Of a stretch of DNA of 64,000 nucleotides, positions 46,335 through 52,862 are shown one piece after another (within the stretch, counting starts at the first letter, position 1; each line of letters starts with the position of its first letter). The position numbers were made by a program, and so were the translations under genes. The notes under the pieces were generated by a model. It was not told the origin of the DNA. It made no database searches and was given only the letters and a program-made list of their open reading frames with translations. This stretch comes from a virus (Duplodnaviria; Heunggongvirae; Uroviricota; Caudoviricetes): IMG/VR virus record IMGVR_UViG_2645727901_000008; one strand, 5' to 3'.

Positions 46335-46389
46335 TTTTGGTGTTAAACATGTACCAATTTACATCCTTTTGTGTGCCTAAGTGGTGTTT

Positions 46390-47196
46390 CTATGGTTCCT
46401 TTTTGGTGTTCTTTTGGAGCGCATCGATAACGCCTTGTGGCATGATTAAACTGATTGCCGGACTCATTACTGCATCATCCAGTAGAGAACCAGTTAACGT
46501 GATGGCGACAGCGTTCTCTAAACCTCTGGTTGCCTGAGTGGTTGACGTTTTAATGCGACCTGTAAGGGCTACGACACCCTCACTTGCTGAGTTAATTTCG
46601 GAGAGTAAAACTTCGGCGGCTGTCACTGCTTCCCGTAAAGCATCAATTTCATCCTGAGTAATGACTGGAGCCTGAGCGCCCCCAGCACCACCCTGTCCAC
46701 CATTGCTTTCACCACCACCAGCACTTCCGGTAGCTTCAATTTTTGCGTTAATGGCGTTCATGGCGGTTTTCAGAGCATCAAGTTTTAGCGCCGTCAATGC
46801 GTCCGTCAGAGATTGCGGAATGGAAACATTCCCCATTCCCTCAACAAGGGCGAAAGCAGGTATGGGGGTCAGCTCGTTACCTTTTGCGTAGCATTCCCAG
46901 CCAATCTTCATCTGTAACAGCTCTGATGGTTTGGTGTATGGGGAAAGAGAATCAGCCAGTAATGAAGACGCTTTGCTGGCCTCATTGAGCTGTTCAGAAA
47001 AGCCAAGCAATTGAGTAGTCCAGGCCGAAACAGAATCAGGATAGGTTTTATCGGCGTGAACTATTCCCTGTATGGCGCTGGCGAGCGATGAGGCTTTTAC
47101 AGAAGCTGCCCGGCTTATGGTTATAGATTCTGGTGTAGAGATACCGGCATCTGACAGAATTTTGAAGGCTTTAACTTCACCTATTGAATCAAGCAT
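46390..47196 (-). CDS. hypothetical protein downstream of the PAAR gene
   Basis: About 268 aa from ATG 47196, which overlaps the PAAR stop by 1 nt; Ala/Ser/Gly-rich middle region. Confidence 0.45.
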   Translation of the reverse strand: MLDSIGEVKAFKILSDAGISTPESITISRAASVKASSLASAIQGIVHADKTYPDSVSAWTTQLLGFSEQLNEASKASSLLADSLSPYTKPSELLQMKIGWECYAKGNELTPIPAFALVEGMGNVSIPQSLTDALTALKLDALKTAMNAINAKIEATGSAGGGESNGGQGGAGGAQAPVITQDEIDALREAVTAAEVLLSEINSASEGVVALTGRIKTSTTQATRGLENAVAITLTGSLLDDAVMSPAISLIMPQGVIDALQKNTKKEP

Positions 47197-47480
47197 TATG
47201 CAACCTGAAAAATATCCTCGCCGTTGGCGATAACAGAACCACAAGAAAGCGGATCGCCTACACAGACAACTCCCTTTCCACCTATCGAAAACCATACTCG
47301 CGTCGATACAGCTGCCCCTGGATGTGCACTGTTACCGTCAGTGTGACTGGGAAACATGGCACCATCTACAACAACTGGCTTACCGTTAACGGTGAACCAG
47401 GGAACGGTTTCAGCTACCAGTCGCGGCGGAAATCCTCCGTGACCAGAACAAAGGGTGTCGCTGGTGGCTATTGCGCTCAT
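47196..47480 (-). CDS. PAAR-like spike-tip protein
   Basis: 94 aa with Cys/His/Gly pattern (…LCSGHGG…NGKPVVVDGAMFPSH…GDPLSCGS…) as in PAAR proteins. Confidence 0.6.
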   Translation of the reverse strand: MSAIATSDTLCSGHGGFPPRLVAETVPWFTVNGKPVVVDGAMFPSHTDGNSAHPGAAVSTRVWFSIGGKGVVCVGDPLSCGSVIANGEDIFQVA

Positions 47481-47559: not shown

Positions 47560-47735
47560 TTTTGTATTCTCAATTCGTTCTCAAATAAATCTCACTGTCA
47601 GACCATCATTCGGTGGGTGATTAAGATATTCTCAAAATAAACTCAACAATCGCTCTTTTTATCTCGTTTGGTGTGGATTTTTGGGTGCTTCTCTTTTAAA
47701 ATTACATTTTGGTTCTCAAATGTGTCTCAGAAGTG
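47560..47735 (+). repeat. parC-like centromere repeats upstream of parM
   Basis: Repeated TTCTCAA(A/T) elements at about 47567, 47578, 47629 and 47714. Confidence 0.5.
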
Positions 47736-47745
47736 GAGCAAGAAG

Positions 47746-48702
47746 ATGCGCATTTTTATCGATGATGGTTCAACCAATATCAAAATGCTGTGGGAGCACG
47801 ACGGGGAAACTCGCACTCACATCAGCCCTAACAGCTTTAAGCGCGGATGGTCAGCAACATTTGGTGCTGGCAAGCCATTTAACTATGTCATTGACGACGA
47901 AAAGTATTCGTATGATTTGATCTCGCCAGATGTTCTGCCGACGAATAACGTGGAATGGCAATACAGCCCGCTTAACGTCCTGGCTGTTCACCATGCCCTG
48001 CTGACAAGTGGCATTGAGCCGCAGGAAGTAGAAATTGTGGTTACGCTGCCACTGGCGGAGTTTTACGACGACGACGCGCAATACAATCTCGATAACATCG
48101 AGCGCAAGAAAGCCAGCCTTATGCGCCCCGTCACGCTGAATAAAGGCAATGTATTCACGATTAAGAAAGTTACGGTACGCCCGGAGTCTATTCCGGCAGG
48201 AATTGGTCTGTGCGACAATCTGAACCCTGCCCACTCTGTTCTTATCGTCGATTTGGGTGGAACTACCCTTGATGTTTCAATGGTCGCCGGGCAAATGACG
48301 GCAGTTTCCCGTGTTTTTGGCGATTCGAATCTTGGTGTATCACTGGTCACCAGGGAAGTAAGGCAAGCACTTGCCAGAGCCAATACCGAAACGTCAAATT
48401 ACAATGTCGATCAGCTCATTATTAACCGCCACGATGAAGATTATCTGAACGACAATATCAATGACCCATCAGCGGTTGGTGATGTGAAAAAGGCCATTGC
48501 CGCAAGCATTGACCGTCTGCGTACCCGCGTTCTTGATGTGATTGGCGACTTTAAAGGATATACGCATGTCATGGTGATCGGTGGTGGCGCACCGCTGGTG
48601 GCAGATGCAATTCGCGAGCAAGTTAATATTCGTGATGACCGTTTCTTCGTGGCGGATGACCCGCAACTTGCTCTTGTTCATGGCCTGAAAGCAATCGGTT
48701 AA
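47746..48702 (+). CDS. parM: plasmid segregation actin-like ATPase ParM
   Basis: MRIFIDDGSTNIK…ISPNSFKR…DLGGTTLD…GYTHVMVIGGGA is highly similar to R1 ParM as recalled. Confidence 0.9.
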   Translation: MRIFIDDGSTNIKMLWEHDGETRTHISPNSFKRGWSATFGAGKPFNYVIDDEKYSYDLISPDVLPTNNVEWQYSPLNVLAVHHALLTSGIEPQEVEIVVTLPLAEFYDDDAQYNLDNIERKKASLMRPVTLNKGNVFTIKKVTVRPESIPAGIGLCDNLNPAHSVLIVDLGGTTLDVSMVAGQMTAVSRVFGDSNLGVSLVTREVRQALARANTETSNYNVDQLIINRHDEDYLNDNINDPSAVGDVKKAIAASIDRLRTRVLDVIGDFKGYTHVMVIGGGAPLVADAIREQVNIRDDRFFVADDPQLALVHGLKAIG

Positions 48703-48709
48703 CGAGGTA

Positions 48710-49054
48710 ATGTCCATGTCTCAGGAACGTAAGAAAGTGATGATTTATCTTCGCCCAGAGGCTTATGCCAATGAAAAGGCGGCGAGCGAGAAGATAAAAA
48801 AACATAGCGATATGGCAAGAACCGCATTGTTGGCAGGGCTTGCGCTGGGAGAAGTCGATAGCAGGCTTCCAGGATTACTGGCTTCCCTGCTGACCGAAGA
48901 CAATAACCCGGAGCTGATCCGAAAAATGCTGGCATCCTTCCTGGAACTACCAGCTGCGGTTGAGGAGCGCCCTGCCTCCATTGAGCCAGTGAAGGAGCAA
49001 GTTGTTGCCAAAAGCGCGTCGGCGCGTAATCTTGCTGATTCTCTACCTGATTGA
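48710..49054 (+). CDS. parR: ParR-like centromere-binding adaptor
   Basis: 114-aa ORF 7 bp after parM, matching the R1 parMR order; followed by a terminator. Confidence 0.55.
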   Translation: MSMSQERKKVMIYLRPEAYANEKAASEKIKKHSDMARTALLAGLALGEVDSRLPGLLASLLTEDNNPELIRKMLASFLELPAAVEERPASIEPVKEQVVAKSASARNLADSLPD

Positions 49055-49073
49055 TGGTCAAAACTCTATTTTA

Positions 49074-49097
49074 AGGCTGCAAATTGCAGCCTTTTTT
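49074..49097 (+). terminator. intrinsic terminator after parR
   Basis: Hairpin ggctgc-aaatt-gcagcc followed by ttttttg. Confidence 0.6.
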
Positions 49098-49098
49098 G

Positions 49099-49320
49099 TT
49101 CCTTTTTGGTGTTAAAATGGCATCAAAGCGACACCAAATGGGAGTCGTTAATGTACTGGTGCATACTTGGTGCTAATTTAGTGCTATTCAGGCGCAAAAC
49201 GTGTACCAGTATCCATCGGATTTGATGTTATACTTCCGGCATTAAGAATGGTGCTATTGCTGTACCGTTGATGTGTAAATGTGGTGCTGTTTTAGTGTAA
49301 AAATAGAGCCAAAATAAAGC
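49099..49320 (+). repeat. centromere-like repeat region upstream of parA
   Basis: Dense (T)GGTGC(T) and GTACCAG-type repeats, including acttggtgctaatttagtgctatt, aatggtgctattgctgtacc and tgtggtgctgttttagtg. Confidence 0.5.
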
Positions 49321-49326
49321 CGAGGT

Positions 49327-49974
49327 ATGGACATGATTATCCTGGTAGCAAGTCAAAAGGGAGGCTGTGGCAAGTCAACCACCAGCGTCAATATTTGTGC
49401 CGAGCTGGCCCGAAAAAACAAAGATGTCGTCTTGATTGATGCTGATAAGCAGGGAACGGCAGCTCGATGGGCGTCAGACCGTAATTCGTCCGAAGTGACA
49501 CCAGTTATTCATTGCGTCCAGAAGTTTGGAAATATTCGAGAAACTCTGCTCGATCTTAACAATCGATATGAATACGTGGTTGTTGATACCGCAGGTCGTG
49601 ATAGTAAAGAGATGCGCACAGGTATAACGGCGGCGGATATTCTATTGGTTCCATTCAGGCCGTCTCAGCCAGATTTGGACACGCTGGCACACTTTGTTGA
49701 GGTGTTTGAAGAGGCTTTGGATCTGATGCCTAATCCCAATATTAAGGCGTGCGCAGTCTTAACTATGGCCCCGTCAAATCCGGTTGTGAATGAAGCAAAT
49801 GAGGCCAAAGAGTATCTGGCAGAATATCCGCAACTGAAATTGCTGAAAACCATTATTCGCGATCGCAAGGTTTACCGCGACTGCATGGCTGAAGGAAAGG
49901 GTGTTGTTGAGATGGATAACGGTAAGGCGAAAGGTGAAATTCAGATGTTAGTTAAGGAGTTGCTAAGTGATTAA
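49327..49974 (+). CDS. parA: small ParA/ParF-type partition ATPase
   Basis: Deviant Walker A (KGGCGKST) in VASQKGGCGKSTTSVN and a VVDTAGRD segment; 215 aa. Confidence 0.8.
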   Translation: MDMIILVASQKGGCGKSTTSVNICAELARKNKDVVLIDADKQGTAARWASDRNSSEVTPVIHCVQKFGNIRETLLDLNNRYEYVVVDTAGRDSKEMRTGITAADILLVPFRPSQPDLDTLAHFVEVFEEALDLMPNPNIKACAVLTMAPSNPVVNEANEAKEYLAEYPQLKLLKTIIRDRKVYRDCMAEGKGVVEMDNGKAKGEIQMLVKELLSD

Positions 49975-50251
49975 ACGTCGAGAACCAGCTAAAGCGCCTA
50001 AGGCTACTGATCCGGAACTTGAGCGAAGAATTGAAGAGTTCGCCAGCAAAGCGGATTTAATCCCGGATGAAATTACAACGGGGAAGGTGCTTGATAAAGA
50101 TGCGCCGCGCGACTTTAAATCCATACGCGTGAGCTTTAATGAATATGAGTACGGGGTGCTCGATGCGTTAAGCAAAAAGCTTAACCGCAGCAAATTGAAC
50201 CTGATTCGACATGCCATCCTCATGCTTGCTGAGTCAGAGGATGCTAAATGA
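49967..50251 (+). CDS. ParG-like small centromere-binding protein
   Basis: 94-aa ORF overlapping the parA stop; C-terminus IRVSFNEYEYGVLDALSKKLNRSKLNLIRHAI is compatible with a ribbon-helix-helix fold. Confidence 0.55.
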   Translation: MIKRREPAKAPKATDPELERRIEEFASKADLIPDEITTGKVLDKDAPRDFKSIRVSFNEYEYGVLDALSKKLNRSKLNLIRHAILMLAESEDAK

Positions 50252-50370
50252 TACCGATTTGATGCCTTATTGGCGTCTATCGTGTACCAGTGCAATAATG
50301 TGTCAAAGTGGTGCCATAATGGTGTTAATATACAGCCATATTGATATCAAATTGACACTGTATCGGCATC

Positions 50371-50396
50371 AAAAAGCCCCAGGCGGGGCTTTTTCT
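50371..50396. terminator. bidirectional intrinsic terminator
   Basis: aaaaagcccc-aggc-ggggctttttc between the parA/G locus and the convergent dam gene. Confidence 0.65.
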
Positions 50397-51300
50397 ATTT
50401 GAGCGTTGCAATGATATCGTTAGCGACTATTCGCGTGGATGCTTTGCATGACACGGACCGTCTGGCTGGCATGTGGTACAGCTTAAAACCGTTTCTTTCG
50501 TACAATTCGCGAATTTTTGGCGCGCCACTGTTTGTTATTACTATCTTTGCACCGCGCTGGTGGGCCGCCACCAACAGTGATACAAGCCGTTTTTGTTCAT
50601 CGAAAAGGAAGCTATTTCCTGAATAGCTGGTAAATCCCTCTGTATCTGGCAGCGGCTCATACGGCGGGTCACAAAAAATCACATCGTCTTTACCAGCCGC
50701 CTCGATGACACCAGCAAAGTCACCTGATACAAAGGAAGTGTTTTTGAGTACGTCATCAGCCAAAAATGCCTTCATCTCTGCATGTGGGAAGTAGGGCGCT
50801 TTGTATTTGCCATACCCCACGTTGAACTCGCCATTTTGGTTGTACCGCGTTACGCCATTAAAACAGTGACGATTAAGGTACAAAAATGCGGCAGCATGAT
50901 GTAGTTGGTCATACTTTCCTCTGTTAAATGCCTCACGCACTTCGAGGTAAGCGTCAGCGTTGTTGTAATTTTTGAAAAAACTATATGACAGCGTGACGAG
51001 CGAATGTCCTTCTCGCTGCAATGTCTGATAGAAGTTAATCAGGTCACCGTTAATATCATTAAGCAGGTTGTGGCGAAATCCTGCATTCGTAAATACGGAA
51101 CCGCCACCAACGAATGGTTCTATTAACCGCTTACCGTGTGGTAGATGCTCAAGCACTGTAGGCAATTCTGAGAATTTACCACCTACCCATTTGAATATCG
51201 GACGCTCATATTCATCCGGAGTCCGAATGGTGCGCATATAGCTAATTTCAGCCATCGTATCCTGTTTTTCTATGGCTATGCTTGCTATAGATTTACTCAT
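50395..51300 (-). CDS. dam: DNA adenine methyltransferase (Dam family)
   Basis: KWVGGK…EPFVGGGSVF…FLYLNRHCFNG…FCDPPYEP matches Dam motifs; ATG 51300 has SD aaggggg. Confidence 0.85.
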   Translation of the reverse strand: MSKSIASIAIEKQDTMAEISYMRTIRTPDEYERPIFKWVGGKFSELPTVLEHLPHGKRLIEPFVGGGSVFTNAGFRHNLLNDINGDLINFYQTLQREGHSLVTLSYSFFKNYNNADAYLEVREAFNRGKYDQLHHAAAFLYLNRHCFNGVTRYNQNGEFNVGYGKYKAPYFPHAEMKAFLADDVLKNTSFVSGDFAGVIEAAGKDDVIFCDPPYEPLPDTEGFTSYSGNSFLFDEQKRLVSLLVAAHQRGAKIVITNSGAPKIRELYERNGFKLYHMPARRSVSCKASTRIVANDIIATLK

Positions 51301-51913
51301 AGAGCACCCCCTTATTCGCTTCGAAAACTGCCTTTGCGAATCCATGTGGAGTAGCACTTCGAAAATTAGCCCTGTCAGGCCCTGGTGGCGCGGCATGGAT
51401 TCTGTTATCTGGCTTGCCTAATGATTCGTCCATTAGGGCATCAGGCATGACAAAGCCCTGGCCGCTCCAGAGGCATGTTTTTTTTGTGTAGTTATCTTCC
51501 TGACAATATGCAGTGAAGAAGTAAGGGTGAAAGATGTGATCTGGCTTACGCCAGAATGTCGATATTTTGCTGACCGGATTTTCAATCATGTACGGACAAC
51601 CGATCATCTTTGCAATGTCATAACACTGCCAGACAACCTGCATTGCTTTGAACTGGAAAACCGGATCTTTATTAGCCTTGTCCGAAAACCAGCGCGCGCC
51701 GGAAACAGCCAGGTCAGTACACGGTGGGAACCCGGCCAGAAACACGATGCGCTGCAAATTCTTACGGAGAAAAGCGTATACTTCATCGCTATCGATGATC
51801 GCACTAATACGCGTCAGAACGGCACCTGATTGCATCCGCTCGTCACTGGTCGATAAGTGCTGTGGATCGACGATAGCGGCATCGACACCGTATTCCAGCC
51901 AGGGGGCAACCAT
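51293..51913 (-). CDS. C5-cytosine-methyltransferase-like protein lacking an evident motif I
   Basis: Motif IV-like FLAGFPPCTDLAVSG and motif VI-like CPYMIENP are present. The track start at 52045 would overlap rdgC by about 88 nt; ATG 51913 has a strong SD (acggggg). No FxGxG seen in either version. Confidence 0.45.
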   Translation of the reverse strand: MVAPWLEYGVDAAIVDPQHLSTSDERMQSGAVLTRISAIIDSDEVYAFLRKNLQRIVFLAGFPPCTDLAVSGARWFSDKANKDPVFQFKAMQVVWQCYDIAKMIGCPYMIENPVSKISTFWRKPDHIFHPYFFTAYCQEDNYTKKTCLWSGQGFVMPDALMDESLGKPDNRIHAAPPGPDRANFRSATPHGFAKAVFEANKGVLYE

Positions 51914-51956
51914 TGCCCCCGTAAAATCACAAAGACTCACAACAAGCTGTCGGTTA

Positions 51957-52862
51957 TTATCGTTCTGCTTCACCGCCAATGGCCTCCACCAGCGCGTTAA
52001 ACAGTGCAGATAATTCGCCCGTAAAGAGCACGAAATCAGCATCAAATCGTTGTGCTACATCCTCCCGGTCGATATCGTCGTTCTGGTCATAGAGATCATC
52101 ACAGAATGTCAGGGCTTTGATACTCATATCATCGTTGACTCTGAACGACGCACGGTCCATCCAGTTAATTGCAACGGTCGTAGCTACTTTCCCCGCCTCA
52201 ATGTGAGACATAATCTCGTCGGACTGTAGATCAACTTTGTTGCAGCGAACGGCACCACCATTATCGAGCAGACCCTTTAATGTGGCGTCTTCACCTGCTG
52301 TAAATCCGGCAGGGAAGCCGCTTTTAAACCACTCGGTCATTGTAATTTCCAGCGGTTCGCGTGGTGTGAATGGAATGACAGGCAGGCTGCCGAGCGACTT
52401 TCGCAATAAAGCCAGCTGGTCCTCTGCCTTTTTGGCGCTGCTTGCCTCAACGAATACCAGATGGTTGCTGCGGTCGATCAGGATTTTGGCGAGTGATTTT
52501 CTCGTGAACGCGCGAGGCAAAAGTGAATGCAGGACTTCATCTTTAAGACTGTCTCTTTCCGTTTTCTTCAGCTTGCGGGCTTGCTCTTCTTCGAGTTTCA
52601 GGACTTTTTTCTGCAACTCTTCCTTGAGCACCTGCGAGGGGAGAATTTTTTCTTCTCGCTTATGCTGTATTAGCAGAAAACCCTGGTATTCATGGGTGAG
52701 GTTGTCACCAAGAACAGGTGTCCAACCGACTTTAGCTGTGTCCTGAGAACCGCAAGGAGTAAACACGAATTTGCTAAGAGCATCGGATACTTCTGCGGCA
52801 CTCCAGTTAACTTCACGTGAAAGACGATAGATGAAGATGTTTTTGAAAGCGACTGATCTCAT
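51957..52862 (-). CDS. rdgC: recombination-associated protein RdgC (P1 HrdC-like)
   Basis: …VYRLSR…FTPCGSQD…EEKILPS…[22 protein letters not shown]…[13 protein letters not shown]… is collinear with E. coli RdgC as recalled. Confidence 0.9.

Follow-up and report, generated by a model that had tools for sequence, protein, structure and literature searches.

Two tandem cassettes of type II and type Ib form a probable double partition locus native to phage D6-like plasmid-prophages

Introduction

In the parMRC system of plasmid R1, the parC site consists of ten 11-bp iterons flanking the promoter, and it has been established for R1 and for par1 of pB171 that ParR nucleates and caps ParM filaments, which push plasmid copies apart. 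In the ParF/ParG system of TP228, parH uses ACTC tetramer boxes. A double partition locus is carried by pB171, in which par1 is a type II system encoding ParM and ParR, and par2 is a type Ib system encoding ParA and ParB together with the sites parC1 and parC2 (Ebersbach & Gerdes 2001, Ringgaard et al. 2007, cited in PMC4270457 and PMC13245405). Constructs with parC1 and parC2 on either side of parA-parB have been described, and equipositioning has been shown for par2 of pB171 (PMC4270457). Double type II plus type I partition loci with two functional systems are also known on R27 (Par1, Par2) and on Shigella pINV, and condition-dependent or redundant contributions of the two systems have been proposed for R27 and pINV (PMC13245405). 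In the present study, we describe a comparable locus in the IMG/VR virus record IMGVR_UViG_2645727901_000008, of which a stretch of 64,000 nucleotides (hereafter, the window) was analysed. Two complete partition cassettes, one of type II and one of type Ib, lie in tandem between positions 47567 and 50394 of the window, and it is highly probable that this double partition locus is native to a phage D6-like plasmid-prophage and that its two independent, co-oriented cassettes jointly ensure retention of the low-copy prophage plasmid in each daughter cell. The D6-type locus is a relative of the pB171 double locus: the motors belong to the same two families, and the centromere and the protein that would bind it are different.

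Results

Four co-oriented genes, namely parM, parR, parA and a gene encoding a ribbon-helix-helix (RHH) protein, were observed on the + strand within 47.5-50.4 kb. The region up to the end of parR shows 96.7% identity to Escherichia phage D6, an 89-kb E. coli plasmid, pCUVET20-PYO4.3, is the closest relative with 99.4% identity throughout the region, and 123 plasmids of 76-97 kb match the region. The window comes from a phage D6-like plasmid-prophage belonging to the D6 branch of the P1-like phages and not to P1 proper. Phage D6 (MF356679, annotation of Gilcrease & Casjens 2018) carries the same four genes in the same order, orf58-orf61, between homologues of P1 upfC and dmt, and its record labels them StbA, StbB, "possible ParA partitioning function" (orf60) and hypothetical (orf61). 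A Rep_3-type replication gene lies approximately 10 kb from the par genes in the D6 genome, and a P1-type large ParA/ParB was not found anywhere in that genome. Approximately 120 of the 123 D6-like plasmids carry both cassettes, a count based on the fact that searches with cassette 1, cassette 2 and the RHH protein recovered the same genera with nearly equal numbers of records. Because D6 has the same four genes and lacks a P1-type ParA/ParB, and because nearly all of these plasmids have both cassettes, the double locus is the native partition apparatus of the lineage and represents its norm, not an oddity.

The first cassette is of type II. A putative parC-like centromere and operator (47567-47735, + strand) contains 11-bp iterons with a TCTCA core, arranged in three clusters at 47567-47599 (three copies, cores at 47568, 47579 and 47590), 47629-47650 (two copies, cores at 47630 and 47641, the second reading ACTCA) and 47713-47734 (two copies, cores at 47714 and 47725), giving approximately seven iterons in 11-bp phase. 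A search for the pattern TCTCA-N6-TCTCA with up to one mismatch gave six matches in the 64 kb; four of them, among which were all three exact matches, fell within 47568-47729, and the other two were one-mismatch matches elsewhere. Reading of the sequence suggests a possible weak promoter of the sigma-70-like kind between clusters 2 and 3, TTGGGT-16-TACATT at 47681-47708. The parM (stbA) gene (47746-48702, + strand) is preceded by a GGAG ribosome-binding site 7 nt before the ATG and encodes an actin-like segregation ATPase of 318 aa, in which the Pfam domains StbA_N (1.7e-69, 233 bits) and ParM C-terminal domain (6.6e-55, 186 bits) were both found above their cut-offs, and which aligns over its full length with the R1 ParM structures 1MWK and 4A62 (E ~1e-111) and is 99.4% identical in amino acid sequence to D6 orf58. 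After a gap of 13 nt, the parR (stbB) gene (48716-49054, + strand) encodes a type II centromere-binding adaptor of 112 aa, which matches Pfam PF10784 Plasmid_stab_B (3.5e-11, 43.2 bits against a 25-bit cut-off) and the PHROG 8671 partition protein (8.6e-60) and is 99.1% identical to D6 orf59. The sole PDB match of this protein (1.6e-6) is 2JD3, deposited as "StbB protein", which we take to be the structure of pB171 ParR. The operon is closed by an intrinsic terminator (49073-49099, + strand) with a 9-bp stem followed by a T run (-13.5 kcal/mol, z -4.2), and this terminator is kept in all alleles examined.

The second cassette follows after a non-coding gap of 278 bp between parR and parA. The parA gene (49333-49974, + strand), with a GAGG ribosome-binding site 7 nt upstream, encodes a small Walker-type ATPase of 213 aa, 93.4% identical to D6 orf60, in which a deviant Walker A motif, KGGCGKST, can be read directly. 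This protein has the features of type Ib, i.e. a Walker-type ATPase of approximately 200-220 aa without an N-terminal helix-turn-helix domain; it matches the Pfam families AAA_31, MipZ, CbiA and VirC1, and its best PDB match is ParF of TP228 (4DZZ, 1.3e-17), aligned over the full length. A link to a P1 gene was also considered, and no P1 or P7 record was present among the listed phage matches to ParA (E up to 1e-8). The GTG start of the RHH gene (49967-50251, + strand) overlaps the parA stop by 8 nt, an overlap that suggests translational coupling, and its product, a protein of 94 aa, is by fold and gene order the putative type Ib centromere-binding protein, with a ParG/ParB-like architecture. 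The operon is followed by a bidirectional intrinsic terminator (50371-50394), which was not listed by a consensus terminator scan; the hairpin folds on both strands (+ strand, -15.0 kcal/mol; - strand, -15.6 kcal/mol), a T run follows it in each direction, and it therefore also terminates the convergent dam methylase gene on the - strand.

The assignment of the 94-aa protein was based on its family and its predicted fold. The protein is 78% identical to D6 orf61 and belongs to PHROG 9169, "unknown function". A word-indexed homology search recovered close relatives alone, the protein taken by itself had no match in NCBIfam, and phmmer against the PDB did not retrieve ParG. An exhaustive HMMER search with an alignment of the close relatives recovered 125 representative clusters of 60-130-aa proteins, and individual members of this family match Pfam RHH_1, NikA-like, RHH_7, TacA1 and TraY. 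A first AlphaFold2 model, built from 11 near-identical sequences, was poor (predicted local distance difference test score, pLDDT, 60.6), and its Foldseek matches were no more than suggestive; the model built from a 72-sequence alignment reached a pLDDT of 88. In this model, an N-terminal helix (residues 16-29) is joined by a poorly ordered linker to a C-terminal RHH domain, which is formed by an extended strand at approximately 51-58 and helices at 59-72 and 76-91. When this model was compared with the PDB using Foldseek, the top matches were nearly all RHH proteins, i.e. CopA, TacA1, ParG (1P94), CopG, Arc, ParD and NikA, with a root-mean-square deviation of 1.1-1.6 A over approximately 42 residues, a probability of 0.97-0.99 and a template modelling score (normalised to the target) of 0.7-0.85. 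A profile search of the PDB with the 72-sequence alignment gave sub-threshold matches to the RHH proteins HP0222 and CopG (E ~0.07-0.12). The RHH domain (residues 44-94) is almost invariant across alleles and the N-terminal 43 residues vary. In three of three distant members, 38-44% identical, the RHH gene overlaps the upstream open reading frame (ORF); two of these ORFs encode a complete ParA of approximately 210 aa, and the third, on a 646-bp contig, is truncated and unclassified. In all plasmid matches listed, the RHH gene adjoins a gene for an AAA/ParA-type ATPase. Thus, ParA and the 94-aa protein present a type Ib architecture, with a small ParA and an RHH centromere-binding protein bearing an N-terminal tail.

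Short repeats were observed on both sides of this operon. The repeat unit, TGGTRY, was derived from 6-mer enrichment across the flanks of five alleles, in which TGGTGC, TGGTAC and GGTACC are 20-72x enriched; a first guess at the pattern, WGTGYW-N5-WGTGYW, gave no matches, and looser GGTRC-type patterns showed weak enrichment. In the putative upstream centromere and operator array, which is parC1-like (49107-49298, no strand assigned), the hexamers occur in both orientations and are often 11 bp apart, at 49107, 49131 (-), 49157, 49168, 49179 (TAGTGC), 49203 (-), 49249, 49262 (-, CGGTAC), 49282 and 49292 (TAGTGT). Seven exact copies lie in 49107-49287; no other 250-bp stretch of the window is as dense in this hexamer, the background being 2.3 per kb, and the estimated Poisson P is ~2e-6 per stretch. 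The putative downstream array, which is parC2-like (50284-50340, no strand assigned), lies 3' of the RHH gene and contains GTACCA (-) at 50284, TGGTGC at 50309, TGGTGT at 50320 and degenerate copies, with three exact copies of TGGTRY in 50284-50325; a 41-nt segment (50298-50338) is 76% identical to 49271-49311 of the upstream array. The spaced pattern TGGTRY-N5-TGGTRY, with up to one mismatch, was found 12 times in the window compared with 2.7 expected, none of 100 shuffles reached 12, and six of the 12 matches lie in the two type Ib flanks. The hexamers are kept on both flanks in four diverged alleles (D6, a Shigella dysenteriae plasmid, and the E. coli plasmids L010 and L011), the flanks of which are 50-63% identical to those of the window, and in a metagenomic family member (L005, 44% identical) the ParA-RHH operon is preceded by perfect TTGGTACCGTA repeats and followed by TTGGTACCGTG repeats. 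In an Aeromonas relative (L015), hexamers were observed upstream, and a downstream array was not found. A conserved TGnTATACT motif (49226-49234) among the upstream hexamers is likely an extended -10 promoter, judging from its sequence. The type Ib operon thus has putative centromere and operator arrays on both sides, in a parC1/parC2 layout.

These results bear on the original prediction, in which a ParM/ParR locus and a small ParA/ParG-type locus were read side by side from the DNA alone. Two partition systems of different types are indeed adjacent, and the four genes were found on the + strand at the predicted place by Pfam, PDB and fold matches; the parC-like repeats upstream of parM are present as the TCTCA iterons, and each locus has its own terminator, the second being common to the dam gene. 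The repeat-rich region proposed upstream of the second locus is also present, to which an array on the other side must be added, and the term "ParG-type" is appropriate for architecture and fold and not for membership of a ParG family at the sequence level, the protein having no Pfam match.

The conservation of the two cassettes was compared across alleles using pairwise Nei-Gojobori estimates. All four ORFs are intact in the window, D6, the Shigella allele and other alleles, and the ratio of non-synonymous to synonymous substitution rates (dN/dS) is 0.02-0.13 for all four genes, even across synonymous divergence (dS) >1; therefore, both cassettes are maintained by strong purifying selection. 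Salmonella sp. pSa1423-160k (L012, NZ_MK356558.1) was left out because of its many apparent frameshifts. The two cassettes differ in their divergence. Between the window and D6, identity is 97-100% for at least 4 kb upstream. The break coincides exactly with the parR end; the region upstream of parA is 50-63% identical, parA 75-91% and the RHH gene 66-79%, and the value returns to approximately 96% downstream. The corresponding dS values are 0.10 for parM, 0.06 for parR and 1.25 for parA, with saturation for the RHH gene. In the Shigella dysenteriae allele (L009, CP026821.1), dS is 0.19 for parA, 0.40 for parM, 0.85 for parR and 1.04 for the RHH gene, and the ParA protein is 100% identical to that of the window; this mosaic indicates that breakpoints also occur between parA and its RHH partner gene. 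The RHH allele of the window is in the minority, with nine plasmids in the 95-99% band compared with 102 of the D6 type at 60-80%. Thus, a backbone of 97-100% identity contains a hypervariable island, namely the type Ib cassette (50-90% DNA identity, dS >1), and this implies cassette exchange. The two-locus state is ancestral, and the type Ib alleles are old and have been shuffled between near-identical backbones, with no new acquisition by this element.

The second cassette was also observed on other replicons. It is present without a ParM gene on the Serratia conjugative plasmid pELP1.10, it lies beside repA on Aeromonas salmonicida plasmids (pS68-1) as the sole partition-like cassette in the stretch inspected, and it is likewise the sole such cassette in the stretch inspected of an Arsenophonus plasmid. 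Because it occurs without ParMR on Serratia, Aeromonas and Arsenophonus plasmids, the ParA-RHH pair is a self-contained module. On the 96-kb Arsenophonus apicola plasmid paApi_AU1 (L014, 3983-4857), the pair is located among phage tail and baseplate genes, suggesting that this plasmid is another phage-plasmid, which uses the ParA-RHH cassette alone.

Several further features were noted around the locus. A possible third hexamer cluster (46347-46420, no strand assigned), comprising GTACCA (-), TGGTGT, TGGTTC, TGGTGT and TGGAGC at 11-bp phase, lies approximately 1.2 kb 5' of the parM iterons and overlaps the 3' end of a upfB-like gene; it is kept in D6 (L001, 3983-4021) and shares TTTACATCCTTTT with the D6 region downstream of orf61. 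This cluster might provide the RHH protein with an additional binding site or be a remnant, and its membership in the locus is uncertain. A small PAAR-domain protein, the homologue of P1 upfC, is encoded on the - strand at 47196-47480, divergent from the parM iteron region, and the 265-bp intergenic region must accommodate its promoter as well as parC. Downstream, D6 and most relatives have glnS (glutaminyl-tRNA synthetase) between the RHH gene and the dam gene (L001, 7865-9834); in the window (50252-50394), its closest relatives and Shigella dysenteriae plasmids, glnS is missing and the RHH gene leads straight to the bidirectional terminator. The Dam-type adenine methylase ORF (50395-51396, - strand) overlaps a second ORF (51293-52045, - strand), the D6 counterpart of which is a putative cytosine methylase, and an RdgC-family gene (51957-52862) follows the methylase ORFs. 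The dmt gene of P1 is a fusion, and in the window its activities appear to be split between separate genes. In the 169-kb Salmonella plasmid pSa1423-160k, two places match the region and the par genes are broken into many small ORFs, so that this record has the appearance of either an assembly rich in errors or a D6-like element in cointegrate or dimeric form.

Discussion

Herein, we propose that the D6-like lineage is segregated by two cassettes acting side by side, and we infer the DNA binding, the promoters, the filament and gradient mechanics and the contribution to stability from analogy with described systems. First, by analogy with R1 and with par1 of pB171, the 11-bp TCTCA iterons upstream of parM would be the sites at which ParR binds, and the ParR-iteron complex would nucleate, cap and stabilise actin-like ParM filaments, by which sister plasmids would be pushed apart; the position of the iterons on both sides of the promoter would allow autorepression of the parMR operon by ParR. 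Second, dimers of the 94-aa RHH protein might coat the TGGTRY arrays on both flanks of the type Ib operon to form the partition complex, the N-terminal tail might stimulate the ATPase of ParA-ATP bound to the nucleoid, and the resulting ParA gradient would position the plasmid and lead to equipositioning. In this tail, R5 and F25, which are nearly invariant, and R20/R21, which are invariant in the lineage, are candidate residues for the contact with ParA. Third, binding of the RHH protein around the extended -10 promoter might provide autoregulation; both DNA-binding proteins probably autoregulate their own operons. With regard to why two systems are kept, redundancy for a prophage of one to two copies and condition-dependent performance, as proposed for R27 and pINV (PMC13245405), are the obvious options.

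Several observations weigh against a function of both cassettes in partition. The promoters of both cassettes are weak or missed by the consensus scan, which did not list the TTGGGT-16-TACATT candidate, and the literature search, which did not include the D6 genome paper (this paper may already discuss both systems), returned no functional evidence for either cassette in D6-like elements. With respect to the second cassette, the 94-aa protein has no significant match to ParG, pB171 ParB or a Pfam family (E up to 0.1), and the Foldseek E-values are weak (0.16-1), because the domain has only approximately 45 residues. ParA scores 161.9 bits (1.4e-47) with NCBIfam NF041546 ParA_partition, by far its best-scoring family, under the 180-bit equivalog cut-off. 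These results might be taken to mean that the ParA/RHH pair is not a partition system and is instead a regulatory or copy-control module, or an ATPase positioning another cargo, with ParMR as the sole true partition system; the RHH fold is also found in CopG, antitoxins and NikA, PHROG 9169 carries no assigned function, and "cop, parA, stbB and parM" are listed together in PMC6799933, with the RHH gene labelled "cop" by homology. However, what defines the type Ib layout is a ParA-RHH operon whose two genes overlap translationally, flanked on either side by short repeats; the alignment of ParA with ParF covers the full length of ParA, its identity to the pB171-type ParA is 43%, no toxin gene is adjacent to the pair, and the pair stands beside repA on Aeromonas plasmids without other par genes in the stretch examined. 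We therefore consider this explanation improbable.

A further point concerns parM, which in the closest relative, pCUVET20-PYO4.3 (L002, NZ_CP115379.1; 4348-5300), is split into two frames near codon 49. This split represents either a pseudogene or a sequencing error, and it may be a possible reason why the plasmid table shows no parM there; the frameshift, if real, suggests that loss of ParMR need not lead at once to loss of the plasmid. Accordingly, one of the two systems could be regarded as a redundant remnant in decay, with the lineage relying on a single system, and it has been discussed for some plasmids with double par loci, namely R27 and SCP1, that one system contributes much more than the other (PMC13245405). 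The intact ORFs in the window, D6, Shigella and other alleles, the low dN/dS values and the retention of both cassettes in approximately 120 plasmids argue against decay, the lone frameshift could be a sequencing error, and such a remnant is no more probable than a non-partition role of the ParA/RHH pair. The least probable explanation, that this element recently gained a second, foreign partition module besides its own, would account for the sharp drop in identity at the parR/parA boundary, for the far deeper synonymous divergence of cassette 2 and for the presence of this family on unrelated plasmids, but a homologous ParA/RHH cassette occupies the same position in every allele of the lineage, that of the type phage D6 included, so that what moved was an allele of a resident cassette and not a new system, and D6 has no P1-type ParA/ParB for an added module to supplement.

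Thus, the interpretation as a native double locus is retained, and it modifies the remaining parts of the original prediction. The pairing had been considered unusual for a P1-like element, a reading that is not supported in view of the four genes of D6, the D6-like plasmids with both cassettes and the precedents on pB171, R27 and pINV. The accompanying premise, that such an element has a large ParA with ParB as its own partition system, is correct for P1 and does not extend to the D6 branch. Modular acquisition had been suggested as the origin of the pairing; the exchange of type Ib alleles, seen in the drop of identity and in dS >1, is modular in this sense, but the two-locus state itself is ancestral. 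The comparison with relatives that had been recommended to find the ancestral locus showed both loci across the lineage, including D6, with exchange of the type Ib alleles between its members.

These findings are of interest in several respects. First, D6-like phage-plasmids occur widely in E. coli, Shigella and Salmonella; in the absence of the P1 ParAB they rely on a pair of systems resembling that of pB171. Second, a candidate function and a candidate binding motif (TGGTRY, 11-bp phase, both flanks) can be suggested for a protein family labelled hypothetical in every record examined (PHROG 9169). Third, the backbone is clonal apart from the type Ib cassette, which varies, and this provides a lead on partition incompatibility among related plasmid-prophages. 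In this regard, we tentatively hypothesize, as a speculation that goes well beyond the double locus itself and is rather less likely to be right than wrong, that ParMR serves as the nearly invariant core motor of the D6-like lineage and that the type Ib cassette, comprising ParA, the RHH tail and both arrays, is a swapped island whose alleles act as determinants of partition incompatibility or exclusion when related prophage plasmids compete for one host; the cassette might also use the third cluster at 46347-46420, so that its binding sites would bracket the whole locus, and cross-regulation of parMR, as in pB171, would be possible. The novelty is modest, consisting of an uncharacterised family of RHH centromere-binding proteins and a hypervariable type Ib cassette; the locus is otherwise of a known kind, and the current understanding of plasmid segregation is not overturned.

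Finally, the locus can be compared with the known systems. In a tblastn search with ParA, thousands of plasmid homologues were recovered, including IncF plasmids that encode a ParA of 214 aa and a protein of 91 aa divergently from parM-parR, and two of these (L007 and L008) were used to represent the pB171-type locus in place of pB171 (NC_002142, AB024946). The L007/L008 locus corresponds to the pB171-type double par, because the ParR of L007 and the 2JD3 chain have the same residue at every position of the aligned stretch. The window shares with pB171 the adjacency of one type II and one type Ib cassette, a type Ib partner that is an RHH protein of approximately 90 aa overlapping parA, and short repeats that flank the type Ib operon on both sides as parC1 and parC2 do, and the proteins of the window are 43% (ParM), 32% (ParR, E 3e-11) and 43% (ParA) identical to those of L007/L008. 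It differs from pB171 in that the cassettes are tandem and co-oriented, with a terminator and separate repeats between them, whereas those of L007/L008 are divergent from a shared parC1 region; in that the RHH protein has no detectable similarity to pB171 ParB (BLASTP E 0.12; hhalign probability 1.4%); in the repeats, which are TGGTRY in the window and TCACAT-like in L007/L008; and in the replicon, which is a phage-plasmid here and a conjugative IncF plasmid in the pB171 type. Compared with D6, the DNA of the type Ib cassette is just 50-90% identical, and the window lacks the glnS gene that D6 has before dmt. The second cassette resembles ParF/ParG of TP228 in its small ParA and tail-and-RHH architecture, ParF being the best match among solved structures and ParG (1P94) the one among the top fold matches that aligns nearly the whole RHH protein (74 columns, including the N-terminal tail), whereas the 94-aa protein has no family match at the sequence level, and its repeats are TGGTRY hexamers in 11-bp phase, in arrays on both flanks, in place of the boxes of parH. 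The first cassette resembles parMRC of R1 in its iterons of 11-bp period, which lie upstream of parM and bracket the likely promoter, but these number approximately seven, grouped 3+2+2 with a TCTCA core, and ParR is of the StbB/pB171 kind. With R27 and pINV, which are plasmids and not phage-plasmids and which have other protein families and layouts, the D6-like element shares the presence of two partition systems on one low-copy replicon.

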